A stretch of DNA of 27,916 nucleotides, taken from contig JBDGTY010000014.1 in assembly GCA_042216335.1 (NCBI GenBank), positions 1 to 27,916 of the forward strand, given 5' to 3'. Position numbers and translations under genes: made by a program. The notes under the pieces are model-generated. The model made no database searches and was not told the origin of the DNA. It worked only from the letters and a program-made list of their open reading frames with translations. Below, in pieces: positions 4,969-25,699 of this stretch (position 1 is its first letter; each line of letters begins with the position of its first letter). Source of the DNA: Candidatus Nanohalobium sp. (GTDB taxonomy: Archaea; Nanohalarchaeota; Nanosalinia; Nanosalinales; Nanosalinaceae).

Positions 4969-5940
4969 ATGGCAAAGAAGAATAGATCGAGAAGCGGATC
5001 ACTGGCATACAAGCCCAAGGTAAGGGCTGAAAGAATCTACCCAGACGTAAGTACGTGGGAAGATACAGACGAGCAAAAACCATTAGGATACGCAGGATAC
5101 AAGGTCGGAATGACCAGAGTCCTCAGAATAGATGATACAGAAGGAGCAACACAGGGACAGGAGATTGCCACACCTGTGACGATCCTCGAAGCTCCTCCAC
5201 TAAGAGTTTACGGGGCACGCTTCTACGTAGAAGACATCAACTCCGGAAAACAGGTCTTCACAGAGGCATGGACAGAAAGTCCTTCAAAGGAACTTCAGAG
5301 AGCAACAGACATTCCAAAGGAAGGAAACATGGACAACCTGGAGAAAGCAAAGGAAAACTCAGATGAAATAACAGACGTCAAACTACTGGTTCACACTCAG
5401 CCTTCTCGTGCAGGACTTTCGAAGAAGAAGCCTGCCAACTTCGAAATTGGGTTAGGAGGCTCAGTTGAAGAACAGCTTGAATATGCAGAAGAGATGATCG
5501 GAAAAGAGATCGAGTTCTCCGACGTATTCGAGGAAGGAGAATACAGCGACGTTATCGGCGTCACGAAAGGAAAGGGAATGGAAGGACCAGTCCAGAGATA
5601 CGGGATCAAGAAGCTGGACCACAAGACACAGAAAAAACGTAGGAAGGCAGGAAACGTCGGTCCATGGCACCCAGACCAGCTTTCATGGAGAATCCCGCTT
5701 CCAGGACAACAAGGTTACAATAACAGGACGGAGGAGAACAAGAGAATCCTCGCACATGGAGAAGACCCAGAGGAAGTTCAGAGAGATGGAGGTTTCAAGA
5801 ACTATGGAGAAGTCCAGAGCAACTACATCCTAGTCAAAGGATCAGTACCAGGGCCAGCAGAAAGACTTGTCCGACTCAGAACAGCACTCAGAACAGACGA
5901 AAACCCGGGAACACCAGAAATCACCCACATCGAAAAATAA
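4969..5940 (+). CDS. rpl3: 50S ribosomal protein uL3
   Basis: RSGSLAYKPKVRA, GYAGYKVGMT, GVTKGKGMEGPVQRYG, GPWHP, KGSVPGP. ATG at 4969 follows AGGAG. Confidence 0.98.
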   Translation: MAKKNRSRSGSLAYKPKVRAERIYPDVSTWEDTDEQKPLGYAGYKVGMTRVLRIDDTEGATQGQEIATPVTILEAPPLRVYGARFYVEDINSGKQVFTEAWTESPSKELQRATDIPKEGNMDNLEKAKENSDEITDVKLLVHTQPSRAGLSKKKPANFEIGLGGSVEEQLEYAEEMIGKEIEFSDVFEEGEYSDVIGVTKGKGMEGPVQRYGIKKLDHKTQKKRRKAGNVGPWHPDQLSWRIPLPGQQGYNNRTEENKRILAHGEDPEEVQRDGGFKNYGEVQSNYILVKGSVPGPAERLVRLRTALRTDENPGTPEITHIEK

Positions 5941-5955
5941 GAGGTGTAAACGATA

Positions 5956-6714
5956 ATGACAGACTTACCAAACCAGTTCAACGAGAGGATCAGGCCTGAC
6001 ATCATCAAGAGAGCCAACCTCTCGATCAAGAGTAAGAAAAGACAGGACTACGGATCAGACCCGGAAGCAGGTCTCAGACACGTAGTATACTGGAAGAAAA
6101 AACAGAATGCATACAGAGGACAGAAAGGAAAAGGCATGTCTCGTACCCCGAGGAAGATTCGTGTCAGACGAGGAAGCCAGATCTACGGAGACGGCGCAGA
6201 AGCACCGAACACCGTAGGCGGACGCACAGCTCATCCTCCAAAGGCAGAGAAGGACTTTGACGAAGAGATCAACGACAAGGAAAGAAGAAAGGCGATCAGG
6301 TCAGCGATCGCAGCAACATCAGACCAAAGCCTTGTCTCAGAGAAGCATAATTACGAAGGAGACCTTCCGATTGTAGAAGATGGAATCTCCGGAATCGAGA
6401 AAACACAGGAACTCAAGGAAACACTCGAAGACCTTGGACTAGAAGACGAACTCGAGAGAGTCTCCGAGAAAAAGGTCAGAGGAGGCAAAGGAGCCAACAG
6501 AGGAAGGAAATACGTCAGAAAGGTCGGCCCTCTGGTAGTAACCGCAGAAGACGAAGGAATCAGTCAGGCAGCAAGCAACCTGCCGGGAGTAGATTACTCC
6601 AGGGTGGATCAGCTTAACGCCGAGAAACTTGCTCCGGGAGCAGAACCAGGAAGACTGGTTGTATGGAGCACAAAAGCAGTAGAAAAACTTGACGAAGACG
6701 GAATGTACCAATAG
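5956..6714 (+). CDS. rpl4: 50S ribosomal protein uL4
   Basis: IRPDIIKRA, GGRTAHPPK, AIRSAIAAT, LAPGAEPGRL; SD GAGGTG; position after uL3. Confidence 0.97.
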   Translation: MTDLPNQFNERIRPDIIKRANLSIKSKKRQDYGSDPEAGLRHVVYWKKKQNAYRGQKGKGMSRTPRKIRVRRGSQIYGDGAEAPNTVGGRTAHPPKAEKDFDEEINDKERRKAIRSAIAATSDQSLVSEKHNYEGDLPIVEDGISGIEKTQELKETLEDLGLEDELERVSEKKVRGGKGANRGRKYVRKVGPLVVTAEDEGISQAASNLPGVDYSRVDQLNAEKLAPGAEPGRLVVWSTKAVEKLDEDGMYQ

Positions 6715-6726
6715 AGGAGATAATAT

Positions 6727-6996
6727 ATGGAAGTTGATAGAGCATGGGAGGTTATCGAAAATCCACACATGACAGAGCAGGCAATGGACATGATCGACGA
6801 GGAGAACAAACTGGTTCTCATGGTCGACCTGGAAGCAGACAAAGGCCAGGTAGAGGACGCGGTCGAAACTCTGTTCGATGTGGATGTCGAGAAGGTCAAT
6901 ACTAACATCACGTCTTCAGCAAAGAAAAAAGCATACGTAAGGCTAAGTCCAAGCGACAGCGCGATGGACGTCGCGACTGAAATGGGCATGATGTAA
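6727..6996 (+). CDS. rpl23: 50S ribosomal protein uL23
   Basis: PHMTEQAM...ENKLV...VEKVNT...KKAYVRL; synteny. Confidence 0.96.
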   Translation: MEVDRAWEVIENPHMTEQAMDMIDEENKLVLMVDLEADKGQVEDAVETLFDVDVEKVNTNITSSAKKKAYVRLSPSDSAMDVATEMGMM

Positions 6997-7008
6997 GGTG
7001 AACAACAG

Positions 7009-7710
7009 ATGGGAAGCCCACTAAGACAGCAGAGAAGAGGAAAAGGAAGTCCGAAGTTCCAGGCCAACAGGAAAGGCAAGGGAACAGCGGAGCACAAGAA
7101 CGACGAAATCACGGGAACGGTCGTGGATGTAGTCCACGACCCGGCAAGGACAGCACCAGTCGCCAAAGTAGAGTTTGAAGACGGTGAAGTCAGAAACGTT
7201 CTTGCGCCTGAAGGACTTCAGACAGGAGACGAAATTGAAGTAGGTGTCTCAGCGCCTGTAGAGCCAGGAAACGTACTGCCTCTTGGGGAGATCCCGGAAG
7301 GAGTACCGATCAACAACATCGAGATCCAGCCGAACGATGGTGGAAAGATGGTAAAGGCATCAGGAACATACGCTTTCGTCGTAACGCAGGAGCAGGATGG
7401 AGTAAGGATCCAGCTTCCTAGCGGCGACTTCAAGAAACTAGATACTGAATGCAGAGCAACTATCGGAAAGGTTGCAGCCGGCGGAAGAAAGGACAAACCG
7501 TTTGTCAAGGCCGGAAACGCATCCAAGGCTGCAAAGGCTCGTGGAAAACAGTACCCAACTGTCTCCGCAGTAGCCATGAACGCAGTCGACCACCCATTCG
7601 GTGGATCAGCAAAACCAGGACAGCCAAAGACAGTTTCCAAGCACGCTTCCCCAGGAAGCAAAGTTGGAAACATCGGAGCCAAACGCTCCGGCAAGAAGAA
7701 CAACGACTAG
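7009..7710 (+). CDS. rpl2: 50S ribosomal protein uL2
   Basis: QRRGKGS, HDPARTAP, CRATIG, AMNAVDHPFGG. Confidence 0.98.
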   Translation: MGSPLRQQRRGKGSPKFQANRKGKGTAEHKNDEITGTVVDVVHDPARTAPVAKVEFEDGEVRNVLAPEGLQTGDEIEVGVSAPVEPGNVLPLGEIPEGVPINNIEIQPNDGGKMVKASGTYAFVVTQEQDGVRIQLPSGDFKKLDTECRATIGKVAAGGRKDKPFVKAGNASKAAKARGKQYPTVSAVAMNAVDHPFGGSAKPGQPKTVSKHASPGSKVGNIGAKRSGKKNND

Positions 7711-7719
7711 GTGTATATA

Positions 7720-8067
7720 ATGGGAATTGAGGGAAAAAAACATGAAGCAGAAGTATGGGCCAGAGAGATCGTCAGAGACATCAATGAACAGCTCTCGGAC
7801 TCATGGATAGCTGAACTGCCTGCATCTCATGGTATTTTCGGTGAAATTTTTCCATACAAAGTAGCAGATAGTTATGCTGATTTGCCAGAAGAAAAAAGGC
7901 AAAACTTTGAAAGATCACTTGCAGAATACGTCGAAGAGTTTGAGGGAGCAGACCAGGGCTCTATAGCCCGTGATTTAGTGACTGGAGCTATAAACCAACA
8001 CAATTACAAAAACCCATATTTAGCTAAGAAAGCAGCAGAGGGAATCGCTGAAGGTGTAATGCAATAA
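7720..8067 (+). CDS. Hypothetical protein inserted between uL2 and uS19
   Basis: The ORF fills the gap exactly, has an SD AGGTG overlapping the uL2 stop and a TAATG overlap with uS19. Composition is acidic and no family motif was recognised. Confidence 0.8.
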   Translation: MGIEGKKHEAEVWAREIVRDINEQLSDSWIAELPASHGIFGEIFPYKVADSYADLPEEKRQNFERSLAEYVEEFEGADQGSIARDLVTGAINQHNYKNPYLAKKAAEGIAEGVMQ

Positions 8068-8444
8068 TGACAGATGACTTTACTTACAGAGGAAAAACAC
8101 TCGAAGAACTCCAGGATCTGAGCCACGACGAGCTCGCAGAGCTCATGGACGCAAGAGCAAGAAGGAAACTGGAGAGAGGTCTTCGAGAAAACGAGGAAAA
8201 ACTACTGGAAAAACTGGAAGACAAAGACAGAGTACAGACACACCTGAGAGGAATGATCGTTCTTCCAGAGATGGTAGGAAAGACGATCGAAATCTACAAC
8301 GGACAGGGATTCGAGGAAGTCGATATCGAGGAAGAGATGATCGGACACTACCTAGGAGAATTCGCCAAAACCAGGAAAGAAGTATCACACAGCGCACCAG
8401 GACTCGGCGCTACAAGATCTTCAAAGCACGTACCGCTCAAGTGA
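8067..8444 (+). CDS. rps19: 30S ribosomal protein uS19
   Basis: FTYRGKTLEEL, THLRGMIVLPEMVG, MIGHYLGEFA, GATRSSKHVPLK. Confidence 0.98.
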   Translation: MTDDFTYRGKTLEELQDLSHDELAELMDARARRKLERGLRENEEKLLEKLEDKDRVQTHLRGMIVLPEMVGKTIEIYNGQGFEEVDIEEEMIGHYLGEFAKTRKEVSHSAPGLGATRSSKHVPLK

Positions 8445-8451
8445 TGCCTAA

Positions 8452-8874
8452 GTGAACAAGATCGACACCGAAGCACACCAGGCCCGAGCACTCGGCAAGA
8501 ACATGCCGATCTCCTGGAAAGACTCCACAGAAATAGGTCGCTTCATCAGCGGTGACACAGTAGAAAAGGCAGAGAGGAAACTAGAGAAAGTGATCGAGAA
8601 AGAAGTTCCTGTTCCTTACACAAAGTTCGACAGCGACGCAGGACACAAATCCGGTGCAGGGGACTCAGGAAAATACCCTGTCAAAGCAGCAAAACACATG
8701 CTTGAACTAGTACAGGAGGCAGCCCACAACGCAGAACACCAGGGCCTCAACCCGGGATCACTGCACGTGGAGAACGTTGTCACCAACAAGGGCAACGAGT
8801 ACGCAACTCCCGGGAGATTCAGAGGAGAGAAAACCAAGGCAGCACACGTCAACGTAATCGTAGGTGAGAAGTGA
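8452..8874 (+). CDS. rpl22: 50S ribosomal protein uL22
   Basis: PISWKDSTEI, GKYPVKAA, NAEHQGL; GTG start; synteny. Confidence 0.96.
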   Translation: MNKIDTEAHQARALGKNMPISWKDSTEIGRFISGDTVEKAERKLEKVIEKEVPVPYTKFDSDAGHKSGAGDSGKYPVKAAKHMLELVQEAAHNAEHQGLNPGSLHVENVVTNKGNEYATPGRFRGEKTKAAHVNVIVGEK

Positions 8875-8930
8875 TGACCGAAGATCAGAGATCTTCTACG
8901 ATGATTTACACGCAAGGTGAAAATCAATAA
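8874..8930 (+). other. Intercistronic element: hairpin plus an 18-codon mini-ORF (MTEDQRSSTMIYTQGENQ)
   Basis: ATG at 8874 overlaps the uL22 stop (TGATG) and has SD AGGTGA at 8862-8867. TAA at 8928-8930 overlaps the uS3 ATG. Hairpin GAAGATC-AGA-GATCTTC at 8880-8896. Confidence 0.5.
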
Positions 8931-10084
8931 TGCAGGAGAAACAATTTATCGAGAAAGGAGCAAGAAAAGTAAGGCTTGACGAATTCCTATCAGACGAGCT
9001 TGAGGGAGCAGGATACAGTCATGCAGAAATCGAGAGAACACCGACAAGCACAAAGATAGTAGTACACGCACAGAAGCCAGGACTCGTCATCGGAAGAGGC
9101 GGAAGCAGAATCCGCGAACTAACCGAAGACATGGAAGAAGAGTTCGACTTCGAGAACCCTCAGATCGAGGTAAACGAGATCGAGAACCCGGATGCCGATG
9201 CAAAGGTTGTAGCGAAGAGCATCGCGGACTGGCTGGAAAAAGGCGGGCACGCCAAGAGAGTAGGATACACCTACCTCAGAAGGATGAAAGAGGCAGGAGT
9301 AATCGGAGCAGAACTGGAGATCACAGGAAAGCTCTCCGGAAACCGTGGAAGAACGGAGAAGTTCTCCTACGGGTACGTCAAGAGATGTGGAAACACCTCT
9401 AAGGCCAACGTTCAGAAAGGATATGAACTGGCAAGGACCAAGCCAGGAGCCATCGGCGTCAAGGTCAGGATCATGAAAGACCTGCCGGACTTCCTGCACA
9501 GGGACGTAGACGTCAGTGAAGAGATCCTCCACGAAGTACAGCAGGATGAAGAAGCAAGAGAGAAATCCACAAGAATTGAAGAAGTCGTCAGGGAAGCAGA
9601 GAACATGACCTCGGCAGAACTCGAGAGAGCAATCGAGGAAAAGGCTGAAGAAGTCAAGACAGATGACATCTCCAAGGAAGAAATCAGGGAAGCATTTGAC
9701 TCGGCCGACGCAGTAGAAGAACTGGAAGAAAAGGCTGAAGAAGTCGAGGAAGAGGCCGAAGAGATCATCGAAGAAGAATCTGGCGAAGAACAGGAAGAAG
9801 ATGCAGAAGCCACAAAGGAAGAGGCCGAGGAAGTCGAGGAAGAGGCCGAAGAACTCGCTGAAGAAACCGAAAATGAAGAAGTAGAAGAGGCTGCTGAAGA
9901 AGTTGCCGAAGAGATGGAAGAAGTTGAAGAAGACCTTGAAGAAATCGTCTCAGGCACGATCAGCGACGCCAAGGAAGCAATCAACGACATGAGCGAACCA
10001 GACTTCGACGCACTGCTTCAGGCAGAGAAAAGCAGCAAAGACCGCAAAACCTTCAAAGAATGGCTGGAACGCCAGAAGGATTAA
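8930..10084 (+). CDS. rps3: 30S ribosomal protein uS3 with a long acidic C-terminal extension
   Basis: KPGLVIGRGG KH motif, GAELEITGKL, KPGAIGVKVRIM; about 200 extra residues follow. Confidence 0.97.
   Translation: MQEKQFIEKGARKVRLDEFLSDELEGAGYSHAEIERTPTSTKIVVHAQKPGLVIGRGGSRIRELTEDMEEEFDFENPQIEVNEIENPDADAKVVAKSIADWLEKGGHAKRVGYTYLRRMKEAGVIGAELEITGKLSGNRGRTEKFSYGYVKRCGNTSKANVQKGYELARTKPGAIGVKVRIMKDLPDFLHRDVDVSEEILHEVQQDEEAREKSTRIEEVVREAENMTSAELERAIEEKAEEVKTDDISKEEIREAFDSADAVEELEEKAEEVEEEAEEIIEEESGEEQEEDAEATKEEAEEVEEEAEELAEETENEEVEEAAEEVAEEMEEVEEDLEEIVSGTISDAKEAINDMSEPDFDALLQAEKSSKDRKTFKEWLERQKD
9635..9950 (+). repeat. Degenerate 90-nt (30-aa) tandem repeat in the uS3 tail
   Basis: GAAAAGGCTGAAGAAGTC occurs at 9638 and 9728; GAAGTCGAGGAAGAGGCCGAAGA occurs at 9740 and 9830. 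EExEEV recurs every 30 aa, four times. Confidence 0.75.
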
Positions 10085-10108
10085 AAGAACTGAGAGGTGT
10101 ACATAACC

Positions 10109-10297
10109 GTGAAAGCAGAAGAAATCAGAGAAAAGGACACGTCCGAACTGAAGGAACAGCTCGGCGACCTGCAGAAAGAACTTGTACAGGAACGCGGCCA
10201 GATAGAGGTCGGTGGATTCGCCGACAACCCTGGCGAAATCAAGGAGATGAAGAAAACCGTCGCAAGAATCAAAACAGTTCTCAACGAACGCAACTAG
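10109..10297 (+). CDS. rpl29: 50S ribosomal protein uL29
   Basis: KAEEIRE...NPGEIKEMKKTVARIKTVLNE. GTG at 10109 follows SD GAGGTG at 10094-10099. Confidence 0.95.
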   Translation: MKAEEIREKDTSELKEQLGDLQKELVQERGQIEVGGFADNPGEIKEMKKTVARIKTVLNERN

Positions 10298-10303
10298 ATA
10301 ATA

Positions 10304-10609
10304 ATGAGTGAAACATGCCCAAAGTGCGGAATGCCACAGGATCTTTGCGTCTGCGACAGCATCGCACGTGAAGACCAGCAAATCACAGTCAAACTCGACT
10401 CAAGAAGCTACAACAAAGAGATGACCGTTGTCACAGGTCTCGACGACGAAAGCGACATCAAAGACCTGGAATCAACGCTCAAGACCAAACTCGCCTGCGG
10501 AGGCACACACAAAGACGACCAGATAGAACTTCAGGGCGACCACAGAAGAAGAATCGTCGACATCCTAGAAGACGAAGGATTCAGCCGGGAAAACATCGAA
10601 GTCAAATAG
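10304..10609 (+). CDS. Translation initiation factor aIF1/SUI1
   Basis: CPKCGMPQDLCVC, LKTKLACGGT, IELQGDHR; usual position after uL29 in archaea. Confidence 0.96.
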   Translation: MSETCPKCGMPQDLCVCDSIAREDQQITVKLDSRSYNKEMTVVTGLDDESDIKDLESTLKTKLACGGTHKDDQIELQGDHRRRIVDILEDEGFSRENIEVK

Positions 10610-15223: not shown

Positions 15224-16199
15224 AGAACTCAGAGAATCATTGGAATCAGAACTAGGCCAGGAGTTCGACTGGCAGGAACTGGAGAAGGGCCTCAACACTA
15301 TCTACCTGCTCTCATCCGAGGGTGAGGAGTACGTCCTGAAGGTTCATACTAATCCGAAGAACAAGGTTCCGTGGTTTAGGGCCGAGCCCAGGATCTACGA
15401 GAAGGTAAGTGATGAGACGGATATTCCTTCGCCGGAGATTGTCTACAAAGATTTGAGCGGTGAGTCGTATCGGGACTTGTTCTATGTGATGGAGAAGCTG
15501 GACGGGGAGAACCCGCAAAACATCAGAGGAGAACTGGGGCAGGAAGAGCTTGAGGAGGTAATCCATCGGTTTGGCAGGATACTCGGTGAGGTCCACAAGG
15601 TACAGATCACCGACGAGTACGGGATAATTGGTTATAGCGGCGGTGTCTTTGGACCTCCTGACTCTGCAGAACAGTGGAACTGGGCATTGGAGGGGTCGAT
15701 GTCTTCCTGGAAGGAGATAACGGAGGATGAATGGGGCGACCCTCCGGAGATAGAGTTCGATTCCGGAAAGGTGAAGGAAAGACTTCCTGAAAAGCCGGAA
15801 TCTGTTCTACTGCATTCGGATAACAGGCTCGACAACCTTCTTGTTGACGGAGATAATATCACAGGCTTTCTTGACTGGAGCCATCCATGGTCCGGACACA
15901 GGATCTACGACCTGGTAAAGACCGAGTACCTCCTCATAGGAAGGGATCTGGGAGAATGGGACAGAGACCTGGATCTGGAGAAGTTGAAGGAGGAGTTCTA
16001 CTCGGCTTACAGGGATGAAACAGGATTTGAGAGAGGAGAGGAGTTCGAAGAACTCAGGCAGATCTACAGGTACGCAGTCACCCTGGAGCTTGCGGCAGGG
16101 TTCGCCAACTGGGGCTCAAAACTGGATGAGAAAGAACACGACAGCACAAGAGAAGAGATAATCGATAGGTTGGAAGCAGAAGAGCCAAAAGTGTTGTAA
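15216..16199 (+). CDS. APH-family phosphotransferase (copy 1)
   Basis: YVLKV, DIPSPEI, LLHSDNRLDNLL, GFLDWS, YDL. Confidence 0.92.
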   Translation: MNEELRESLESELGQEFDWQELEKGLNTIYLLSSEGEEYVLKVHTNPKNKVPWFRAEPRIYEKVSDETDIPSPEIVYKDLSGESYRDLFYVMEKLDGENPQNIRGELGQEELEEVIHRFGRILGEVHKVQITDEYGIIGYSGGVFGPPDSAEQWNWALEGSMSSWKEITEDEWGDPPEIEFDSGKVKERLPEKPESVLLHSDNRLDNLLVDGDNITGFLDWSHPWSGHRIYDLVKTEYLLIGRDLGEWDRDLDLEKLKEEFYSAYRDETGFERGEEFEELRQIYRYAVTLELAAGFANWGSKLDEKEHDSTREEIIDRLEAEEPKVL

Positions 16200-16212
16200 T
16201 CTGAATTAGTTT

Positions 16213-17208
16213 ATGGATGAAGCGCTTCGTGAGCATCTGGAGTCCAGGTTAGGTGATTTTGACTGGGTTGAAGTTGAGCAGGGAGTGAACGATGTCTATA
16301 TCCTGAGTTTGGATGACAGGGATCTGGTTCTGAAGGTGCAGTCCGATCTGGCTGTTGATAGAAGTACGGAGGCCGAACCCGAGATCTACAGGATCATAGC
16401 TGATGAAGCTGATGTTCCGTCGCCGGAGATAGTTTACACCGATTTCTCGCGTGAACAGGCGGGTGATGCGTTCTACGTTATGGAGATGATGCATGGTGAG
16501 AAGGCTGAGGAGGCTTGGCCTGAGATGAGTATGAGGGACAGGAAGGAAGTTGTCTGCCAGTACGGCGAGATACTTGGAAAGATACACGACCTGAGGAGCT
16601 TCACCCAGCACGGGCCTCTCCGACTGAAGCAGGGAAAACTCCAAGTCAGAGATGGGAAAAATTCATGGACTAAAGCCCTCGCCTCCTGGTTTAAGGACTG
16701 GAAAGATAACCTGGAGGATTGGAGAAACCCTCCTGAAGTAGAGGTTCCAGAGGAAACGGAACTGAAGGGATTAGTGCCTGAAGACCCGGAACCGGTGCTG
16801 ATACATGAGGATAACAGGCTGGACAACCTGGTGCTTCAGGGATCTGAGATTTCAGGCTTCCTCGATTGGAGCAGCCCCATTTCTGGACCGAGAAAGTATG
16901 ACCTGGCCAGGGCCGGATACCTGTTAATAGACGGCGACACCACATACGCAGGGAAGGAAATCTTGACGGATAAACAGAAAGACAAGCTCAGAGAAGAACT
17001 CGTCAAGGGCTACAGAAACACTAACTCAATAGACTCTAGCTGGATGGACTCAGAGGAGAGACAAATCTACAGATATGCAGCGATACTGAACATCGCAGCT
17101 GATTTTGAAGAATGGAGCAATCAGATGGAAGAGAAAGATAGACAAAAAGTCAGGAAAGAGCTGATCGATAGATTGAAACAGGAAGAAACTAATTTGAAGG
17201 AAATTTAG
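16213..17208 (+). CDS. APH-family phosphotransferase (copy 2)
   Basis: LVLKV, DVPSPEI, LIHEDNRLDNLV, GFLDWS, YDLA. Confidence 0.92.
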   Translation: MDEALREHLESRLGDFDWVEVEQGVNDVYILSLDDRDLVLKVQSDLAVDRSTEAEPEIYRIIADEADVPSPEIVYTDFSREQAGDAFYVMEMMHGEKAEEAWPEMSMRDRKEVVCQYGEILGKIHDLRSFTQHGPLRLKQGKLQVRDGKNSWTKALASWFKDWKDNLEDWRNPPEVEVPEETELKGLVPEDPEPVLIHEDNRLDNLVLQGSEISGFLDWSSPISGPRKYDLARAGYLLIDGDTTYAGKEILTDKQKDKLREELVKGYRNTNSIDSSWMDSEERQIYRYAAILNIAADFEEWSNQMEEKDRQKVRKELIDRLKQEETNLKEI

Positions 17209-18005
17209 ATTTCCATTCCGTCAAACGCAATGTCTATTTCGAAGCTTGCTTCTTTCTCCAGATCCGAGGCAAATTCCTTTAGCTCTTCATGGTTCATTCC
17301 TCTGTTCTCCTCGATGTGCGTAAAAACCACTCTATCAGGGCCTATCTGTTTCAACTGGCCGAACAATCTGTGGAAATCAGTTATTTCATCGGGTTTTTCG
17401 AACTTCTCCATTTCAAGTCCTCCGAACTCCAGTATGAAGATCTCATGTTCTGAAACCTGTTTTAGGTCAAACTCTGTCAGGTCGCAGGGAGCGTAGAAGA
17501 TCTTTCTCTCATCTTCCAGTGAGTAACCATATGTATTTGACTCTTCTAGAGGTACTGCTTCAATCTTTACTCCATCGAATTTTCTGGATTTGAAATCTTG
17601 TTCCGCTTCCGCTATACCTCTTTCGATGTAGTAGTCCATCATACCTGACATATTCATGTCTCTTAGGTCCTCTAAAACTCCATCAGGAAACAGGACTTCT
17701 ACGGAATCATCGCTTGCATCATAAGAGCCAGCCAGCTGGTTGATCACCATCATGCCCATCGTGTGATCAGGATGGAAATGGGTGTAGAAAATCCTCCTGA
17801 CATCCTTGATTCTCTCTCTGTTCAACTGGAAAGAGATGTCCTGAGAGGTATCAATTAAAGCTTCGATATCTTCAATGTACAGGGCCGGGCCGGTTCTCAT
17901 ATTAGGAGGTGACATCTCCTCTCTAGCTTCCTCACAAACGTCACAGCCGCAGCATGGCTTAGGGATAGGATGAGTCGCGCCTGAGCCAAGGATCTTCAGA
18001 TCCAT
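17205..18005 (-). CDS. MBL-fold metallohydrolase, PhnP-like phosphodiesterase
   Basis: ILGSGA...PKPCCGCDVCEEAR (PhnP-type zinc site), LIDT, THFHPDHTMG (HxHxDH), FTHIEE, AFDGMEI. Confidence 0.9.
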   Translation of the reverse strand: MDLKILGSGATHPIPKPCCGCDVCEEAREEMSPPNMRTGPALYIEDIEALIDTSQDISFQLNRERIKDVRRIFYTHFHPDHTMGMMVINQLAGSYDASDDSVEVLFPDGVLEDLRDMNMSGMMDYYIERGIAEAEQDFKSRKFDGVKIEAVPLEESNTYGYSLEDERKIFYAPCDLTEFDLKQVSEHEIFILEFGGLEMEKFEKPDEITDFHRLFGQLKQIGPDRVVFTHIEENRGMNHEELKEFASDLEKEASFEIDIAFDGMEI

Positions 18006-18057
18006 GTCAATATTTCAAAGACTCACAGTTTTCAAGCTTCACAACGAGTAAATTTCT

Positions 18058-18336
18058 ATGCCACGAACTGCTGAAAACCTTCCGCGCCACGAACTAATCG
18101 GCCTCCATGCAGAGGTCGAAGAACACTCTGACGATAATAAAGAGGATATTTCTGGAGAAGTTCTGGATGAGACCCGTGACATGCTGAGGATCGGAGAAAA
18201 ATGGGTTGAGAAGGAGGGAACTGTCTTCCTGTTTGAATTGGAGGATTCGAAGGTGCGGATCAATGGAGATATCATCCAGAAAAGGCCCGAAGACCGGTTG
18301 AAGATGAAGTTGCCGGGCAAGTGGGAAAGCGTCTAG
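18058..18336 (+). CDS. rnp1: RNase P protein component 1 (Rpp29/Pop4)
   Basis: NLPRHELIGL, GEVLDETRDML, G-x5-RPEDR; normally lies between SUI1 and uS17. Confidence 0.94.
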   Translation: MPRTAENLPRHELIGLHAEVEEHSDDNKEDISGEVLDETRDMLRIGEKWVEKEGTVFLFELEDSKVRINGDIIQKRPEDRLKMKLPGKWESV

Positions 18337-18926
18337 AGTTCAATTATCTTAGAGTCTTGGATGCTTCCATCATAGAACTCATCTGGCTCATATCCAGCGG
18401 ATATCCAGTTAGAAGGATATGAACTCCCAACAGCTCCTTCAACTCCTCTACATCCGTATATAAACTGGCCTGACTCAATTGCTCTATCCTTATCTCTCTT
18501 ATCGCTGTGGAAAGGTTTGTTACTTACATCTTCTATGTTATCTAGGGGTACATCTACCTCTAAGATTATGCTTTTCTCAAGCTTAGGTTCTCCGTATCTT
18601 TCCTTAGTGGCTGTGCCCGCATAACCTGAGGCTGTCTCGAAACTATGTGTTAAATATAGATTGTTTTCGGAAACAATCTCTCCTCCGTTGTTATTCAAGT
18701 GCTCATTCCAATCTTCACGACATGCACCAAAGAAAAGAGATATCGTTTCATCCTCTAAATCAATTCTATTGCCGGCTTTTTCCAAATCATAACCTGATTT
18801 AAGTTCTACTTCGCTCGGTGATTCGGATTTAAGCCAGTCATGCTGATATTCTAATTCCCAGTCAAAAGGCAAATTTTCCACGAGTTCTGCCAGTTCTTCA
18901 TGTCCTTGGTTCTGATCCAGGCTCAC
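18333..18926 (-). CDS. Hypothetical protein, possible degenerate ADP-ribosyltransferase-like fold
   Basis: LFFGA...LYLTHSFETASGYA...IILEVDVP. The GTG at 18926 lies 23-30 nt after TTTATAAA (18949-18956). Confidence 0.65.
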   Translation of the reverse strand: MSLDQNQGHEELAELVENLPFDWELEYQHDWLKSESPSEVELKSGYDLEKAGNRIDLEDETISLFFGACREDWNEHLNNNGGEIVSENNLYLTHSFETASGYAGTATKERYGEPKLEKSIILEVDVPLDNIEDVSNKPFHSDKRDKDRAIESGQFIYGCRGVEGAVGSSYPSNWISAGYEPDEFYDGSIQDSKIIEL

Positions 18927-18981
18927 GTATTTACTTGTTAGTGACAAATTTATAAATATTTCTCTATTCTGGCTCCTTATC

Positions 18982-19168: not shown

Positions 19169-19441
19169 ATGAGTCAAGAATACGAGGTAAGAGGCGGAAC
19201 GTTCACGGGAACAGTCGTTTCCACGAAGATGCAGAAGTCCGCCACCGTAAGATGGGAGCATACGCAGGAAATTCCAAAATACGAGAGAAAAGAGAGAAGA
19301 AACACCAAGATCTCCGTACACGTCCCCGAAGACATGGAAATAGAAGAGGGCGACACGGTTAAAGTAGGAGAGACACGACCCATCTCAAAAACCAAGAGCC
19401 ACATAGTGATGGAAAAAGTCGAAGACAACGGAGATGAGTAA
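19169..19441 (+). CDS. rps19-like not applicable: 30S ribosomal protein uS17
   Basis: VRGGTFTGTVVSTKMQKS, PKYER, ETRPISKTKS. The gene symbol is rps17. Confidence 0.97.
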   Translation: MSQEYEVRGGTFTGTVVSTKMQKSATVRWEHTQEIPKYERKERRNTKISVHVPEDMEIEEGDTVKVGETRPISKTKSHIVMEKVEDNGDE

Positions 19442-19444
19442 CTT

Positions 19445-19846
19445 ATGAAGCCACTGGGATCCAACATTTCTCGTACGCTTGACATCGGAGCAGAGCTTAC
19501 ATGTGCTGACAACTCCGGAGCAAAGGAACTCAAGATTATCGGAGTCAAGTCCAGGAAAGGAAGAAGAAGCCGAAGAGAAAGCGCAGGAGTCGGCGACATC
19601 GTCAAGGTAAAGATTCTGAGAGGAGACGAGGAAGTCCGACATCAGGTATTCGACGCAGTGATCGTAAGACAGGCCAAGGAATTCCAGAGGCCGAACGGGC
19701 TCAGAGTGAAATTCGAGGACAACGCAGCAGTCCTGATCGAAGAGGAAACCATGCTGCCAAAAGGAAACGTAACAAAAGGACCGATCGCAAAGGAAGTAGT
19801 TCAGAGATTCAGTCCGATCGGGAAAATCGCATCAAAGGTGGTGTAA
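19445..19846 (+). CDS. rpl14: 50S ribosomal protein uL14
   Basis: CADNSGAKEL, AVIVRQ, FEDNAAV, KGPIAKE. Confidence 0.98.
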   Translation: MKPLGSNISRTLDIGAELTCADNSGAKELKIIGVKSRKGRRSRRESAGVGDIVKVKILRGDEEVRHQVFDAVIVRQAKEFQRPNGLRVKFEDNAAVLIEEETMLPKGNVTKGPIAKEVVQRFSPIGKIASKVV

Positions 19847-19849
19847 ATT

Positions 19850-20536
19850 ATGGTAGATAAAACTCAGAACTGGAGCAGGGAATGGAAAGCAAGTGACCAG
19901 CCTCAGAAGCAGAGAAAGTACAGAAGAAATGCTCCACAGCACGTTAAAGACAACATGATTTCAGCAAACCTCTCACACGAACTAAGAGACGAGCTCGATA
20001 CAAGAAATATTCAGCTCAACCTTGGTGACAGGGTCGAAGTGATGAGAGGAGACTTCAAAGGAAGCAGAGGAATCGTCTCGAATATCGACAGGGACAAGCA
20101 GAAAGTATACATCGACGGACTGGAGGCGGAGAAGCAGGATGGAACGACGAGAGAGGTTCCTTTCAAGCCGTCCAACCTGCAGATTCGGGCGCTCAACCTT
20201 GAGAACATCGAGAGGATCGAGAAGTTCGAGGTAGAGGATACCGACGCGATCCAGGTCGACGAGGAAGAAGTTGAGGAAGTCCTTGAGGAAGACGAAGAAA
20301 ACGAGATGATGCAGCAGATGCAGGGCGGCGGCCAGCAACCATCCATGGACGACATGGACATCGACGAGGAAGACATGGAAGAGATCAAGGAAGCAGCAGA
20401 AGAAGCACAAGAATCAGAAGATGAAGATTCCGAAGACGAAGCAGATGAAGAAGTTGAGGAACAAGACGAAACCGAAGCTGAAGAGCTGGAGGAATCTGAA
20501 TCTTCTCAAGAAGACGAAAAGGAGGGAGATAAATGA
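19850..20536 (+). CDS. rpl24: 50S ribosomal protein uL24 with an acidic tail
   Basis: SDQPQKQRKY, GDRVEVMRGDFKG, PSNLQI; about 105-aa acidic extension. Confidence 0.96.
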   Translation: MVDKTQNWSREWKASDQPQKQRKYRRNAPQHVKDNMISANLSHELRDELDTRNIQLNLGDRVEVMRGDFKGSRGIVSNIDRDKQKVYIDGLEAEKQDGTTREVPFKPSNLQIRALNLENIERIEKFEVEDTDAIQVDEEEVEEVLEEDEENEMMQQMQGGGQQPSMDDMDIDEEDMEEIKEAAEEAQESEDEDSEDEADEEVEEQDETEAEELEESESSQEDEKEGDK

Positions 20537-21192
20537 TGACACATCAGAAAAGACTTTCAGCACCTAAGCACTACCCGATCTCCAGGAAGGAGAACACGTA
20601 CATCTCGACGGTCAAGGGAAGCAGAAGTGTAGAAGATGCTATCCCGGCCAACGTATTCCTGAGAGATGTAACGGAGTATGCAGAAACCGACAAAGAAGCC
20701 AAAAAGATAGTAGAGAACGGAGACATCCTCAGGAACGGAGAGAAGCTGAGAGATGCCAAACAGGGTATCGGTGTACTGGACCTGGTCCAGCTGCCGAAAG
20801 CTGGGGAAAACTTCAGGGTACTCAGAGATGGAAAAGACCTGAAGTTCGTCCCGACTGAAGACAAAAGAACAGTGGCCAAGATAGTTGGAAAAAAGGTCGA
20901 GGGCGACGACTTCATCTACCATCTTCACAACGGAGAGAACTTCAGGAGCACAACCGAATACGAGACAGGGAATACACTGCTCCTGAAGGAAGGAGAAGAG
21001 GAAGTCAAGCTTGAGGAAGGATCAGAAGTCCTCGTAATCTCCGGTCAGCACGCAGGAGAGACCGCAGAACTTGAGGAAATCAACGAGAGAGGGATGAATC
21101 CGGATACAGGAACAGTTTCCGAGAACGGGACAGAGTTCGAGACCAAGCTGGAAAACCTTGTAGCAGTAGGAGACCTAGAGGTGACAGAATAA
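20533..21192 (+). CDS. rps4e: 30S ribosomal protein eS4
   Basis: THQKRLSAP, FLRD, LHNGEN, SGQHAG; synteny. Confidence 0.95.
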   Translation: MMTHQKRLSAPKHYPISRKENTYISTVKGSRSVEDAIPANVFLRDVTEYAETDKEAKKIVENGDILRNGEKLRDAKQGIGVLDLVQLPKAGENFRVLRDGKDLKFVPTEDKRTVAKIVGKKVEGDDFIYHLHNGENFRSTTEYETGNTLLLKEGEEEVKLEEGSEVLVISGQHAGETAELEEINERGMNPDTGTVSENGTEFETKLENLVAVGDLEVTE

Positions 21193-21707
21193 TGACTGAA
21201 GCTGAGAATCCGATGAAGCAGATTCAGGTAGCTAAAGTAACAGTAAACATCAGTGAGGAAAACGTTGGTGATGAAGTAGAGAAAGCTCACGACCTGATCG
21301 AGAAGATCACTGGAAGAGAACCTGTAAGGGTAGAATCCTCCGAGAAGGCCAAGACTTTTGGTAACAGGCAGGGCCTGAACATCGGTGCGATGGTGACGCT
21401 TAGAGGAAAGGACGCAAAGGAGTTCCTCGAAAAAGTTCAGCCAGCGATCGAAGAATTGAACGCTTCCTCTTTCAGCGACGGAAACTTCGCATTTGGAATC
21501 AGCGAATACATCGATGTGCCCGGAGTAGACTACGATGCAGATATCGGCATGAAAGGTTTCGAGGTAAACGTCGTACTGGAAAGGCCTGGATACAGGGTCA
21601 AGAAAAGAGACCACAAACCATCCGAGGTCGGAAACGATCACAAAGTTTCCAATGAAGAAGCGATCGAGTTCGCTGAAGAAGAACTCGGATTCGAGGTGAA
21701 CAGATAA
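21192..21707 (+). CDS. rpl5: 50S ribosomal protein uL5
   Basis: [43 protein letters not shown]. Confidence 0.97.
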
Positions 21708-21931
21708 TGAGTTACGAAAAGGTTTTAGACCAGATCAAGCATAAGGAGGGTAAAAGAAAGAAATTTGAGAAGAACAACTCTCCTAAAGAGCGAGATTACG
21801 GAAAAGCCAAGAAAGAATGCAGAAGATGTGGCAGAACAGGAAGAGGAGTCATCAGCAAGTACGGACTCGACTACTGCCGCCAATGCTTCAGAGAAGTCGC
21901 TGAAGAGATCGGCTTCAAACAACTCAAGTAG
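21707..21931 (+). CDS. rps14: 30S ribosomal protein uS14 (zinc type, N-terminally extended)
   Basis: CRRCG...[15 protein letters not shown]. Confidence 0.96.
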
Positions 21932-21987
21932 GTGAGCCGAAAATGCGAGATTTTCTGACAACGACAACACAAGGTGATGACGAGTGA
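21930..21987 (+). other. Intercistronic element: hairpin plus a 14-codon mini-ORF (MRDFLTTTTQGDDE, 21943-21987)
   Basis: SD AGGTGA at 21930-21935, ATG at 21943, and TGA overlapping the uS8 GTG (GTGA). Hairpin GAAAAT-GCGAG-ATTTTC at 21939-21955. Confidence 0.5.
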
Positions 21988-22373
21988 AACATGATACACT
22001 GAGCGACGCATTGAGCGCGATCAACAACGCGGCTCGAAACGACAAGGATTACGCGACAGTCGAGCCGACCAGCAACCTGCTGAAGAACGTACTGGTCGAG
22101 CTACAGCAGAACGGATACATCGGAGTATTCGAACTGGTTGAAGACGGACAGGGAGGCAAGTTCAAGATCGAGGTAACTGACACGATCAATGAATGCAGAC
22201 CGGTCAAGCCGAACTTCTCCGTCCAGAACGATGAGTTCGACAAATGGGCCAAGAGATACCTCCCGGCGCAGGGATTCGGAGATCTCATCGTCACGACTTC
22301 ACACGGAGTTATGACGCATGAGGAAGCCCGTGAAGAAAACCTAGGAGGAAAATTGCTCGGATACGTCTACTGA
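21984..22373 (+). CDS. rps8: 30S ribosomal protein uS8
   Basis: DTLSDALSAINNA, GYIGVFE, YLPAQGFG, TTSHGVMTH, GGKLLGYVY. Confidence 0.98.
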   Translation: MKHDTLSDALSAINNAARNDKDYATVEPTSNLLKNVLVELQQNGYIGVFELVEDGQGGKFKIEVTDTINECRPVKPNFSVQNDEFDKWAKRYLPAQGFGDLIVTTSHGVMTHEEAREENLGGKLLGYVY

Positions 22374-22384
22374 GGAGATCAAAA

Positions 22385-22912
22385 ATGGAACAAGCAACGA
22401 TCGAGATTCCGGAGGACTTCGACGCAAGCTACGAAGATGGAGTGTTCACTCTGTCGAACGGCGAGGAAGTCAGCAAGAAGATGCAGCACGCGATGGTAGA
22501 CGTAGATATCGATGGACAGGAAGTAACGTTCAGCACTCGAAGCACCAAAAAAGATGTCCAGAGCATCGTGCACACGTACAGGAACCATGTAGAAAACATG
22601 ATCGAAGGATTGGAAGACGAACATGTCTACAGAATGAAGGGCGTCTACGCTCACTTCCCGATGACAGTGAAGCAGGAAGGAGATCAGGTAGTGATAGAGA
22701 ACTTCATGGGTGAAAGAAATCCTAGAAAGGTCGACATCATGGAAGGAGTAACGGTCGAAGTCGATGGAGAAGACCTGACGCTTCGAGGCGCGGACAAGGA
22801 CGCAGTAAGCCAGACAGCAGCACGGGTCGAACAGATGTGCCACAAAGGGAATAGGGATCCGAGGACGTTCCAGGACGGAGTCTACATCACGCAGAAAGGT
22901 GATCAAGAATGA
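22385..22912 (+). CDS. rpl6: 50S ribosomal protein uL6
   Basis: YAHFPM, IENFMGE, VSQTAARVEQ, DPRTFQDGVYI. Confidence 0.97.
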   Translation: MEQATIEIPEDFDASYEDGVFTLSNGEEVSKKMQHAMVDVDIDGQEVTFSTRSTKKDVQSIVHTYRNHVENMIEGLEDEHVYRMKGVYAHFPMTVKQEGDQVVIENFMGERNPRKVDIMEGVTVEVDGEDLTLRGADKDAVSQTAARVEQMCHKGNRDPRTFQDGVYITQKGDQE

Positions 22913-23247: not shown

Positions 23248-23249
23248 AT

Positions 23250-23696: not shown

Positions 23697-23699
23697 TTT

Positions 23700-25191: not shown

Positions 25192-25216
25192 AATAATTTC
25201 CAGGTGAACTTAAGAA

Positions 25217-25642: not shown

Positions 25643-25699
25643 AAAACACTCTTCCATCATACTTACTTACCGACCGAAACTATCGAGGTTTTCAATTAA

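Follow-up and report, generated by a model that had tools for sequence, protein, structure and literature searches.

What is the short hairpin that stands twice ahead of ribosomal-protein genes in a nanohaloarchaeal genome, each time between the end of one gene and the start of the next? The window, i.e. the whole stretch of 27,916 nucleotides that was analysed (Candidatus Nanohalobium sp., GenBank assembly GCA_042216335.1, contig JBDGTY010000014.1), carries one copy at the uL22/uS3 junction and another at the uS14/uS8 junction, and these gene names are supported by Pfam (Ribosomal_L22, Ribosomal_S3_C/KH_2, Ribosomal_S14, Ribosomal_S8). The original prediction had offered two readings of the repeat, namely an element with a regulatory or processing role that is placed before genes of the small subunit, or a REP-like mini-element that inserts at Shine-Dalgarno (SD) sites and preserves coupling. 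The features of both loci are given below.

Copy 1 (uL22/uS3)
8856..8901, + strand: outer complementarity, ATCGTAG (8856-8862) with CTACGAT (8895-8901), predicted to pair around SD1, the mini-ORF start and H1
8860..8868, + strand: SD1, GTAGGTGAG, within the last uL22 codons; ancestral Shine-Dalgarno site of uS3
8872..8874, + strand: uL22 stop TGA, with one base common to the mini-ORF ATG (8874-8876)
8874..8930, + strand: mini-ORF, 18 sense codons plus TAA; the TAA (8928-8930) overlaps the uS3 ATG (TAATG)
8878..8897, + strand: H1, CCGAAGATCAGAGATCTTCT, palindromic hairpin plus flanking C and T
8902..8926, + strand: H2, second hairpin, -7.5 kcal/mol, z -3.0
8914-8920, + strand: SD2, AAGGTGA, within the H2 loop and 3' arm
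8930..8932, + strand: uS3 start codon

Copy 2 (uS14/uS8)
21928..21936, + strand: SD1, GTAGGTGAG, spanning the uS14 stop TAG (21929-21931), with the 20-mer of copy 2 directly 3'
21937..21956, + strand: H1, CCGAAAATGCGAGATTTTCT, 6-bp stem and 5-nt loop
21943..21987, + strand: mini-ORF, 14 sense codons, its ATG (21943-21945) inside the hairpin
21971-21977, + strand: SD2, AAGGTGA
21985-21987, + strand: mini-ORF stop TGA, overlapping the uS8 GTG start (21984-21986)

The predicted agreement of the two 20-mers at 16 of 20 positions was reproduced. Two of the four differences (positions 6 and 16) make the compensating G-C/A-T stem pair that had been proposed, but the other two (positions 9 and 10) do not both fall in the loop as claimed, one of them lying at the last stem pair. 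In copy 2 the altered last stem base generates the ATG of the mini-ORF. The H1 of copy 1 folds into a 7-bp stem (8880-8886 / 8890-8896) with the loop AGA (-7.3 kcal/mol), and the 96-nt fold around it has a minimum free energy of -21.4 kcal/mol (z -2.9), a stability equalled by 1 of 200 shuffles. The outer complementarity was examined in copy 1 alone.

Both copies are preceded by GTAGGTGAG as described, the 20-mer of copy 1 beginning 9 nt beyond it, but this motif is the ancestral SD and gene end rather than a component of the repeat, because cassette-free relatives retain it. It stands 5-10 nt ahead of the uS3 ATG in such relatives, and likewise 9 nt ahead of the uS8 ATG in genome G001, which is without a cassette at uS14/uS8. 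At copy 1, AGGTGA also lies 6 nt 5' of the mini-ORF ATG. An 11-nt motif of the 16S 3' end had no exact match in the assembly. On the 3' side of both copies the ACAC..AAGGTGA block is present and sets in 10 nt past the 20-mer; its spacing, originally put at 15-17 nt, was approximate, since AAGGTGA begins at 16 nt in copy 1 and at 14 nt in copy 2. The coordinates confirm the 18-codon ORF running from the uL22 stop to the uS3 start, and the coupled mini-ORF noticed at copy 1 has a counterpart in copy 2.

A two-hairpin cassette with a mini-ORF

Scanning the genome with the originally proposed pattern, up to two mismatches being allowed, gave 18 sites against 1 for the reversed control. Further copies therefore exist beyond the two in the window, and 27 compensated cores of H1 (GAARATC-NNN-GATYTTC, a 17-nt palindrome) are found in the 1.02-Mb genome, where arithmetic leads one to expect fewer than 1. 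Between 18 and 19 of the H1 copies here belong to a homologous cassette of ~55-62 nt, in which SD1 and an ATG are followed by H1, by H2 with a second SD, and by the start of the next gene. The 18 copies align end-to-end with a mean column identity of 60%. A model built from them recovered a 19th copy outside the training set at E 1.4e-6; the window copies score 1.1e-7 and 1.1e-6, both being members of that set. A chance likeness of two SD-rich spacers might be suspected, as GTAGGTGAG and AAGGTGA are plain SD sequence common to SD-led genes, but it is refuted by the 18 sites against 1, by the untrained 19th copy, and by the presence of H1 in 53 of the 70 genomes from this phylum, where the reversed control matched nothing. 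The repeat is thus genuine and well outside what chance would produce.

Each of the 18 cassettes sits within an operon and follows a gene of the same orientation, with the end of H1 28-34 nt ahead of the downstream start. A mini-ORF of 13-18 codons is present in 17 of them and stops at -4 to +1 nt of the gene start; each of the 17 has an SD-like motif 4-12 nt ahead of its ATG. H1 sets in 2-8 nt past this ATG in 15 cases and contains it in the other 2, which places the hairpin within the footprint of an initiating ribosome. On the upstream side the arrangement is looser, the stop of the preceding gene being overlapping with or adjacent to the mini-ORF ATG in only 6 of 17. Genome-wide, 41 of 1159 genes have a mini-ORF at coupling offsets, 12 with H1; six control offsets yielded 17, of which 1 with H1. 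These gene calls come from a purpose-made crude caller. Across genomes the mini-ORF recurs in 51 of 57 cassettes, and in 49 it stops at -4 to +1 nt, the stop and start being joined as TAATG, as ATGA or as neighbours (49 of 57). These counts support the coupling-preserving part of the original prediction. The mini-ORF frames relative to H1 are spread 22/22/7 across genomes, and since all three are used, the peptide is not the conserved thing, which speaks against a leader peptide or attenuator. Protein fusions are possible at two copies only, namely the AtpF>AtpA copy, which has no ATG of its own, and a copy outside the set of 18 that is in frame with RpoB'. If the relay reading given below holds, 55-70 nt spacers in nanohaloarchaeal ribosomal operons should not be taken for promoters or leaders by default, and the mini-ORFs in them are systematic.

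The second hairpin, of the GAAA..TTTC type and with the new SD in its loop and 3' arm, exceeds ordinary leaders in stability (mean -7.9 vs -3.65 kcal/mol in 248 control leaders; Mann-Whitney p ~1e-7). Sequestration of SD2 by H2 beyond the ordinary was nevertheless rejected, as on average 46% of the SD bases are paired in cassettes and controls alike, and a strict dependence of the downstream gene on the mini-ORF is therefore unsupported. RNAalifold found no consensus for the 18 H2 segments because MAFFT misplaces their 5' arms, so covariation in H2 rests on per-sequence folds. In most copies the 5' arm of H1 and the 3' arm of H2 form GAAA..TTTC inverted repeats; copy 1 is an exception, its H2 having the opposite polarity and the unit no H1/H2 inverted-repeat ends.

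Conservation of H1 and its tRNA sites

At stem position 4 of H1, 40 sites show A-T 16 times, G-C 11 times and C-G twice, with G-T and A-C at zero. Among the 257 perfect 7-bp hairpins of the genome the commonest stems are GAAAATC (11) and GAAGATC (8). Over 61 copies from five families the outer GAA and TTC are almost invariant and the middle covaries, with 30 compensated cells and a score reached by 0 of 500 shuffles. For example, orthologous copies of G000 and G001 differ by one compensated pair. Selection on a function of H1 and recent spread account equally well for this conservation and for the compensated pair.

H1 is also found at tRNA genes. A sample of 43 H1 sites from five relatives includes 23 linked to tRNA genes; these lie in introns or 3' flanks, and all 23 have the opposite orientation. 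In the 3' flanks, 10 of 11 are bracketed by 12-26 nt direct repeats of the tRNA end. It is possible, and we put it forward tentatively, that H1 is a transposase-less, self-spreading palindrome which targets gene termini of tRNA and protein genes alike. At tRNA genes it would enter the intron or the 3' flank and duplicate the gene end; at protein genes the two-hairpin unit would settle on the start codon and bring its own ribosome-binding site and start, and the displaced original start would then drive the relay mini-ORF. On this tentative view it would be an archaeal mobile element of a new kind, compatible with translation, and a natural experiment on the reach of relayed termination-reinitiation. 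In a variant of the same view, H1 has been adopted as a binding site for a host factor that would co-tune the output of ribosome, RNA polymerase and ATP synthase in these host-dependent cells. The link between the mRNA cassette and the tRNA hairpin bears on the origin of archaeal tRNA introns and of gene-end duplications.

Targets and distribution among relatives

The cassettes stand ahead of genes for ribosomal proteins of both subunits, RNA polymerase, ATP synthase, aIF5A, CDC48 and MsrA. Translation and transcription genes make up 13 of the 18 targets in this genome, and ribosomal-protein genes 15 of the 27 targets in relatives, where cassettes also occur at Top6A, GatB, ProRS and a transketolase-like gene. 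A preference of this kind is not obviously expected of a purely selfish insert.

The cassette family is specific to Nanohaloarchaeota, and within the phylum it is patchy. Model matches number 0-20 per genome; within the same family 20 of 24 genomes have them, as do 3 of 16 from other families. Four same-family genomes have no cassette, three of them being 96-99% complete, and sister genomes carry 5 vs 19-20. Likewise, the uL22/uS3 junction is extended in 9 of 29 cases; the other 20 are short (gaps of -4 to +34 nt). All 9 extended junctions have kept the mini-ORF, and a perfect H1 (at least 6 bp) survives in 4 of them. At uS14/uS8, 4 of 30 junctions are filled, the sister genomes G001 and G003 being empty. 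A shared element at small-subunit genes finds no support in the form first proposed, given this patchy filling of orthologous junctions and given that large-subunit proteins, RNA polymerase and ATP synthase are among the targets. An autoregulatory leader of ribosomal-protein genes (an rRNA mimic) is disfavoured by the same lack of conservation (9/29 and 4/30).

Empty alleles of both window junctions are found in close relatives and in related populations, as the REP-like reading had anticipated. In contigs from related populations, 21936-21984 or 8868-8929 is exchanged for ~9 letters, and in one of them the uL22 end is joined straight to TAATG. Similarly, 54 nt between two ATGs at eL21>RpoF in G000 are exactly missing from G001. 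The filled and empty pairs at uL22/uS3 and eL21/RpoF have ATG or TAATG at both ends, but these are also functionally required and hence no proof of a target-site duplication. The filled and empty alleles of uS14/uS8 differ by replacement of the spacer, with no clean insertion. Genomes G021, G017 and G013 have locus-specific H2 sequences in common at uL22/uS3, and this likeness suggests long persistence at one site.

Alternative explanations

H1 and its cassette could be a selected cis-regulatory RNA module, in which a trans-acting factor recognises the stem of H1, gates initiation on the mini-ORF and thereby co-regulates ribosomal, RNA polymerase and ATP synthase genes. The breadth of H1 in the phylum (53/70 genomes, none in controls), its invariant ends and covarying middle, the compensated G000/G001 pair, the enrichment for translation and transcription targets, and the position of H1 under the initiating ribosome all speak for it. 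The distribution does not, since four genomes of the family are cassette-free, sisters differ several-fold (5 vs 19-20), different genes are occupied in different genomes, and H1 has decayed at 5 of the 9 filled uL22/uS3 junctions, where the mini-ORF is kept. Moreover, the same H1 stands reversed at the tRNA sites (23/23), and no Rfam family matches. In the window Rfam gave zero matches at the gathering score, and at E<=1 a chance-level Cardiovirus_CRE only (18.7 bits vs a gathering score of 37). We consider this module rather unlikely; the hairpin may have some regulatory use.

Less probable still is a signal for RNA processing or stability, by which polycistronic transcripts and pre-tRNAs would be cut near H1, or H1 would cap a new 5' end and so shield the mRNA downstream of it from 5'-3' decay. 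H1 does lie at places where RNA is cut, namely intercistronic regions, tRNA introns and tRNA trailers, and a stem identical in either orientation would suit an RNA-level reader indifferent to orientation. However, what stays constant is the distance to the start codon of the next gene, the mini-ORF persists while H1 decays, and the conservation of SD1, of the ATG and of the stop overlap suggests that ribosomes read through the hairpin and that it is not removed. An intron of the bulge-helix-bulge type, whose splicing from the mRNA would restore the ancestral junction, is very improbable, even though many tRNA introns of the same genomes contain H1 and an ATG or TAATG at both ends would permit exact removal. 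By inspection, the predicted folds of both copies have no two 3-nt bulges separated by 4 bp at the cassette boundaries, the regions around these boundaries lack complementarity to each other, and a conserved SD2 and in-frame stops over three frames would be pointless in an RNA that is removed. Two further candidates were tried and rejected, namely a C/D-box or k-turn (GTGATGA ahead of copy 1), as the box is by eye absent from the other copies, and an intrinsic terminator or promoter, as neither a T-run nor a TATA-like stretch accompanies the GAAGATC variant and the spacing is set relative to the start codon.

A proposed relay of coupling across a spreading insert

The explanation that we favour, with a probability of roughly 0.6, is that the two-hairpin cassette spreads as a palindromic insert and is tolerated as a relay of translational coupling. 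The cassette would have entered closely packed operons precisely at the start codon of the gene that follows, and the ancestral SD and ATG would now initiate a mini-ORF that reads through H1 and H2. Ribosomes, whether coming from the upstream gene or recruited at SD1, would translate the mini-ORF, melt both hairpins in doing so, terminate where stop and start overlap, and initiate again on the gene that follows. Coupling would thereby be relayed over an insert that would otherwise break it. An intergenic distance of ~20 nt almost abolishes termination-reinitiation coupling in Haloferax volcanii and E. coli (PMC10666635). Translation of the mini-ORF, reinitiation and mobility of the element are what we infer; the anatomy and positions of the family, its patchy distribution and the retention of the mini-ORF despite decay of H1 are observed. 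The cassette itself would be a DNA element of the MITE/REP kind, with gains, losses and nesting among close relatives.

If true, a selfish or semi-domesticated repeat is tolerated at start codons within the most essential operons of a minimal, ~1-Mb genome, and tolerated because it brings an SD, a start codon, and a stop codon overlapping the start of the next gene. It would then mark recent genome dynamics in a lineage regarded as streamlined. It would also provide ~150 relay mini-ORFs across genomes on which the distance rules of archaeal termination-reinitiation could be tested. A literature search, with subscription journals outside its scope, found no title or abstract describing such a cassette.

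Comparison with known elements

Huber et al. reportedly described translational coupling via termination-reinitiation at overlapping stop and start codons. The ends of the cassette mini-ORF use the same overlaps, but here a dedicated mini-ORF is interposed between two real genes, and the reinitiation is proposed from sequence.

The link that the original prediction drew to short palindromes of haloarchaea was only partly apt, since we are dealing with a DPANN nanohaloarchaeon and not with a haloarchaeon. Archaeal MITEs are listed for Sulfolobus, Halobacterium and Haloquadratum in a review (PMC10969869). Rickettsia palindromic elements (RPEs), as outlined in the same review, are ~150 bp long and fused in-frame into proteins (PMC10969869). 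Like these, the cassette is palindromic, translation-compatible and must be traversed by ribosomes; unlike them, it holds a mini-ORF of its own that lies between two genes, and the host lineages are unrelated.

As to mobilisation, no gene linked to the element (transposase, integrase or other) was found in searches that covered Y1_Tnp and the TnpB-type domain. The Y1/RAYT transposase (PF01797) had 0 matches in this 96%-complete genome; among 41 relatives, 3 have it and 32 have H1. Mobilisation of the RAYT/IS200 type was therefore rejected. One TnpB-type fragment is present on contig C31.

Set against MITEs and REP/BIME elements, as the review characterises them (PMC10969869), the cassette differs in having no detected parent IS or transposase and no clear target-site duplication, in sitting at operon start codons in place of gene ends or random spacers, and in bringing an SD and reading-frame punctuation. 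The REP-like reading was therefore right in substance, with many dispersed copies (0-20 per relative) at SD sites and coupling preserved, but not in the strict sense of REP, which would imply a Y1/RAYT transposase and sites at gene 3' ends. The likeness to this group is that the cassette is short, gene-free, palindromic and multicopy, has outer arms (the first of H1 and the last of H2) that are inverted repeats of each other in most copies, and shows variable copy number, presence/absence polymorphism and nested copies. For example, in G002 two additional hairpins are nested within the old 5' arm of H1, and the mini-ORF, lengthened to 34 codons, still ends on TAATG.

Two junctions in the ribosomal-protein clusters

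The window carries two copies of a hairpin-bearing cassette, at junctions whose flanking genes (uL22/uS3 for copy 1, uS14/uS8 for copy 2) are upheld by Pfam. The 20-mer claimed to be common to both is correctly placed and identical at 16/20 positions, with a compensated stem pair among the four differences. The coupled mini-ORF noted for copy 1 is present there, and copy 2 has one too, which the original prediction overlooked. The features, in forward-strand coordinates, are as follows.

4969-10609: S10-type ribosomal cluster
8874-8930: copy 1 mini-ORF, 18 codons, ATG (8874-8876) on the uL22 TGA, TAA (8928-8930) on the uS3 ATG
8930-10084: uS3, 384 residues, about 200 of them past the Pfam S3 domains; the open frames of relatives have 238-390 residues
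10656-18983: variable in gene content, as related populations skip 16197-18057 and 18327-18980
19169-27091: spc-type cluster; about 8 kb with other genes, lying on either strand, come between it and the S10-type cluster
21943-21945: ATG of the copy 2 mini-ORF, within the hairpin; 14 codons, TGA overlapping the uS8 GTG start

In copy 1, the flanks of the conserved palindromic hairpin (H1) are self-complementary (8856-8862 with 8895-8901) and the 96-nt fold has a z of -2.9; copy 2 shows no excess stability over its shuffles (z +0.9). The element GTAGGTGAG, shared by both copies, does not belong to the repeat: relatives free of the insert retain it as Shine-Dalgarno (SD) and gene end directly before the uS3 or uS8 start. 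The suggested haloarchaeal link fits only in part, the source organism being a nanohaloarchaeon of the DPANN group and no haloarchaeon.

Anatomy of the cassette family

The genome under study (G000; 1.02 Mb, 74 contigs, 96% complete) has Candidatus Nanohalobium and Nanohaloarchaea MAGs as its nearest named records, with uS8 identity of up to 95%. The genome scan that had been proposed as a check returned 18 sites with the original pattern at two mismatches or fewer; the reversed control gave 1. For the compensated core GAARAT-N3-7-ATYTTC there are 27 sites, where our arithmetic expects less than one, and the variable stem position at 40 sites is A-T in 16, G-C in 11 and C-G in 2, with no G-T or A-C. 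Among the 257 perfect 7-bp hairpins in the genome, the most frequent stems are GAAAATC (11) and GAAGATC (8).

By our own gene calls, eighteen copies share a layout of co-oriented upstream gene, ATG, H1, spacer, second hairpin (H2) and gene start, with 28-34 nt from H1 to the downstream gene. A mini-ORF of 13-18 codons ends between -4 and +1 relative to the gene start in 17/18; the exception (AtpF>AtpA) lacks its own ATG, and there the frame ending at the AtpA start remains open upstream of the cassette. All 17 mini-ORFs have an SD-like motif (SD1) 4-12 nt ahead of the ATG, and H1 begins 2-8 nt past the ATG in 15 of them, the ATG lying within H1 in the other 2. The loop and 3' arm of H2 contain a second SD (SD2). 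The 18 copies align end to end at a mean column identity of 60% and so share a common origin, as opposed to having converged. A covariance model trained on them recovered the training copies and an untrained 19th on contig C41 (E 1.4e-6). Short ORFs (8-30 codons) at coupling offsets precede 41 of 1159 genes, 12 with H1; at six non-coupling offsets, taken as control, there are 17 such genes, one with H1.

A cassette-like unit before RpoB' (C16:49659-49719) matches the model weakly (E 0.39); as no stop precedes the ATG of the gene, translation would make the unit an N-terminal extension.

Target genes

Cassette junctions in the genome under study (upstream > downstream gene)
uL22 > uS3
uS14 > uS8
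histone > aIF5A
Rpo5 > RpoB''
AtpF > AtpA
AtpI > AtpK
PDCD5-like gene > eL39
L7Ae > eS28
eL21 > RpoF
unknown > eL21
intein-bearing T2SSE ATPase > T2SSF
eL44 > eS27
uL1 > uL10
uS13 > uS4
uS4 > uS11
L18e/uL15-family protein > uL13
unknown > CDC48
MsrB > MsrA

Ribosomal proteins make up 10/18 of the downstream genes, and translation or transcription genes 13/18. Both subunits and other genes are among the targets; hence the proposed link to small-subunit genes does not hold as a specificity of the cassette. For the best model matches in relatives, ribosomal proteins account for 15 of 27 downstream ORFs scanned (28 loci were taken, one of them lacking a start codon where the model ends). Other targets there include Top6A (twice), Spt4, aIF2-gamma, GatB, ProRS, prefoldin, an RNase J-like protein, AtpK, a transketolase-like protein and an amino-acid kinase.

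The T2SSE-type ORF directly upstream of one cassette (L134, C35:32831-38662) has 1943 residues with intein splicing and LAGLIDADG/Hom_end homing-endonuclease domains, so that it probably holds at least two inteins.

Gain and loss

The genomes compared are MAGs or representatives, with genes called by our own caller. The exact H1 pattern (GAARATC-NNN-GATYTTC) is found in 32/41 relatives and in 53/70 genomes of a phylum set (control 0/70), and was absent from the one Undinarchaeales and one Aenigmarchaeota genome searched. The H1 matches listed are all compensated, with no mixed G/T form. Full cassettes (model E<=0.001) occur in 24/41 genomes, namely 20/24 of the same family and 3/16 of other families. 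Their number ranges from 0 to 20 per genome, with 20 in G002, 19 in G000, 13 each in G007 and G009, and only 5 in the sister genome G001; four family members have none, three of these being 96-99% complete.

Of 30 uL22/uS3 loci fetched, 29 were usable (L049, a match without its N-terminus, was dropped). Nine junctions are extended (G000, G001, G002, G003, G009, G013, G017, G021 and G024) and the other 20 are short, their gaps running from -4 to +34 nt. The uS14/uS8 cassette is present in 4/30 junctions: G000, G002 and G024 by script, and G007, mis-scored by the script, by eye. This junction is empty in the same-genus genomes G001 and G003. Likewise, contigs of related populations in public metagenomes carry empty alleles at both window junctions, with 9 letters in place of 21936-21984 (two contigs of set X2) and 9 in place of 8868-8929 (set X3), and one X2 contig joins the uL22 end directly to TAATG. 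These empty alleles indicate that the ancestral state was a stop/start overlap. Similarly, at eL21>RpoF, G001 is without exactly the 54 nt that separate two ATGs in G000. At uL22/uS3 of G002, two extra hairpins are nested within the 5' arm of the old H1, and the mini-ORF has grown to 34 codons with its stop still on TAATG.

The comparative presence and absence suggests that the cassette is mobile; neither an enzyme to mobilise it nor a target duplication of fixed length was found. It behaves like a MITE/REP-type repeat that stays translation-compatible, and is comparable in this to the Rickettsia palindromic elements inside genes (PMC10969869). Membership of REP/RAYT fails on the transposase: a Y1 transposase was not found in G000. 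One TnpB-type domain fragment (Cas12f1-like_TNB) lies in an open frame of 134 residues (C31:156-341).

Conserved mini-ORF and probable mode of action

The mini-ORF is retained in 9/9 extended uL22/uS3 junctions, ending at -3 to +1, and a perfect H1 (at least 6 bp) in only 4/9. Between G000 and G001, +1 and -1 indels flank H1 at this junction, shifting the frame through the hairpin and restoring the stop on TAATG. Across genomes, 51 of 57 distinct cassettes have a mini-ORF (57 being those with a recognisable start, after 4 of 61 model matches were dropped), with the stop at -4 to +1 in 49 and lengths of 13-20 codons, most often 18. As their frames split 22/22/7 relative to H1, the peptide is not conserved; what appears to be conserved is reading through to the start codon.

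A study on H. volcanii and E. coli reports that coupling by termination-reinitiation is almost abolished at an intergenic distance of about 20 nt (PMC10666635), so inserting 55 nt where stop and start overlap would uncouple the gene pair. The cassette, which combines such coupling with a repeat, most likely acts as a translation relay across the insert. The old SD and ATG would launch the mini-ORF, translating ribosomes would unfold H1 and H2 and, on terminating at the new stop/start overlap, would pass to the downstream gene, to which SD2 could contribute fresh initiation. The upstream stop and the mini-ORF start overlap or adjoin in only 6/17, and hence the ribosomes must in many cases come from initiation at SD1. 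Compared with ordinary leaders, H2 folds more stably (-7.9 vs -3.65 kcal/mol). Hiding of SD2 by H2 was rejected, as the SD bases are paired at 46% both in cassettes and in 248 control genes.

H1 at tRNA genes and the role of the hairpin

In G000, H1 lies in the introns of tRNA-Arg(CCU), tRNA-Trp and tRNA-Lys(UUU), behind tRNA-Arg(UCU), and, by eye, in three tRNA-like loci, one of which has an anticodon loop resembling that of Gly(UCC). Five relatives were sampled for 43 H1 sites, of which ARAGORN links 23 to a tRNA: 11 fall within the predicted gene or its intron, 11 lie no more than 120 nt from the 3' end, and 1 is on the 5' side. Six of the 20 sites away from tRNAs are leader cassettes by eye, and the model recovered 3 of the 5 supplied. 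Direct repeats of the tRNA end (12-26 nt) bracket H1 in 10 of the 11 3'-flank cases, usually with an inverted T-arm copy between them. Relative to the tRNA, the strand bearing the purine-rich loop is antisense in 23/23; in mRNA cassettes it is the sense strand in 17/18. Along it, the intact gene lies ahead of H1, in mRNA cassettes and the 11 3'-flank cases alike, which suggests that the element acts at the DNA level and is directed towards gene termini.

Where H1 is present its pairing is well preserved: 97.4% of cells are paired, 6/7 pairs have double changes, and 30 cells are compensated against only 3 G-U; none of 500 shuffles scored as high, in an alignment fitted to the model and of mutually related copies. 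Arm-to-arm correction in a DNA palindrome could, in our view, mimic this covariation without RNA selection. It is possible that H1 has a selected regulatory role, given its conserved sequence, the compensated change between orthologous copies, the target bias towards translation genes and the long persistence at uL22/uS3. Regulation as the primary explanation is opposed by the patchy occurrence with some genomes lacking any copy, by the loss of a perfect H1 from junctions that retain the mini-ORF, and by the copies at tRNA genes. H1 or the cassette might also be an RNA processing, stability or intron element; removal from the mRNA is opposed by the conserved translational punctuation. Rfam returned no family matches, and a search of titles and abstracts (subscription journals outside its coverage) found no such cassette described in Nanohaloarchaeota or elsewhere.

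Other hairpin-bearing loci

A foldback unit is found behind many tRNA genes, comprising a spacer, an inverted T-arm copy, H1 and a perfect direct repeat of the tRNA 3' end (12-28 nt, sometimes with trailer bases). It occurs at C48:2092-2180 of G000 and at L052, L074, L075 (two units in tandem), L077, L078, L081, L082, L084, L085, L086 and L090. ARAGORN predicts only 21 tRNA genes in G000, with introns modelled in 14, mostly of 26-258 nt (a tRNA-Pro model with a 2070-nt intron is implausible), and missed intron-bearing tRNAs on C38, C58 and C74. Several of the introns have GAAA..TTTC hairpins with UUCG, CUUG or GCAA tetraloops. About 530 nt without genes at C5:16120-16660 contain a G-rich block repeated twice and no fewer than five GAAA..TTTC hairpins, one of them a perfect H1; the stretch may be a structured RNA or a pile-up of the repeat. 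Likewise, L053 (G007) and L071 (G010) carry an ACA-loop H1 in a stretch of about 120 nt, similar by eye across two genera and not adjacent to a predicted tRNA or gene start, which may be part of a structured RNA.
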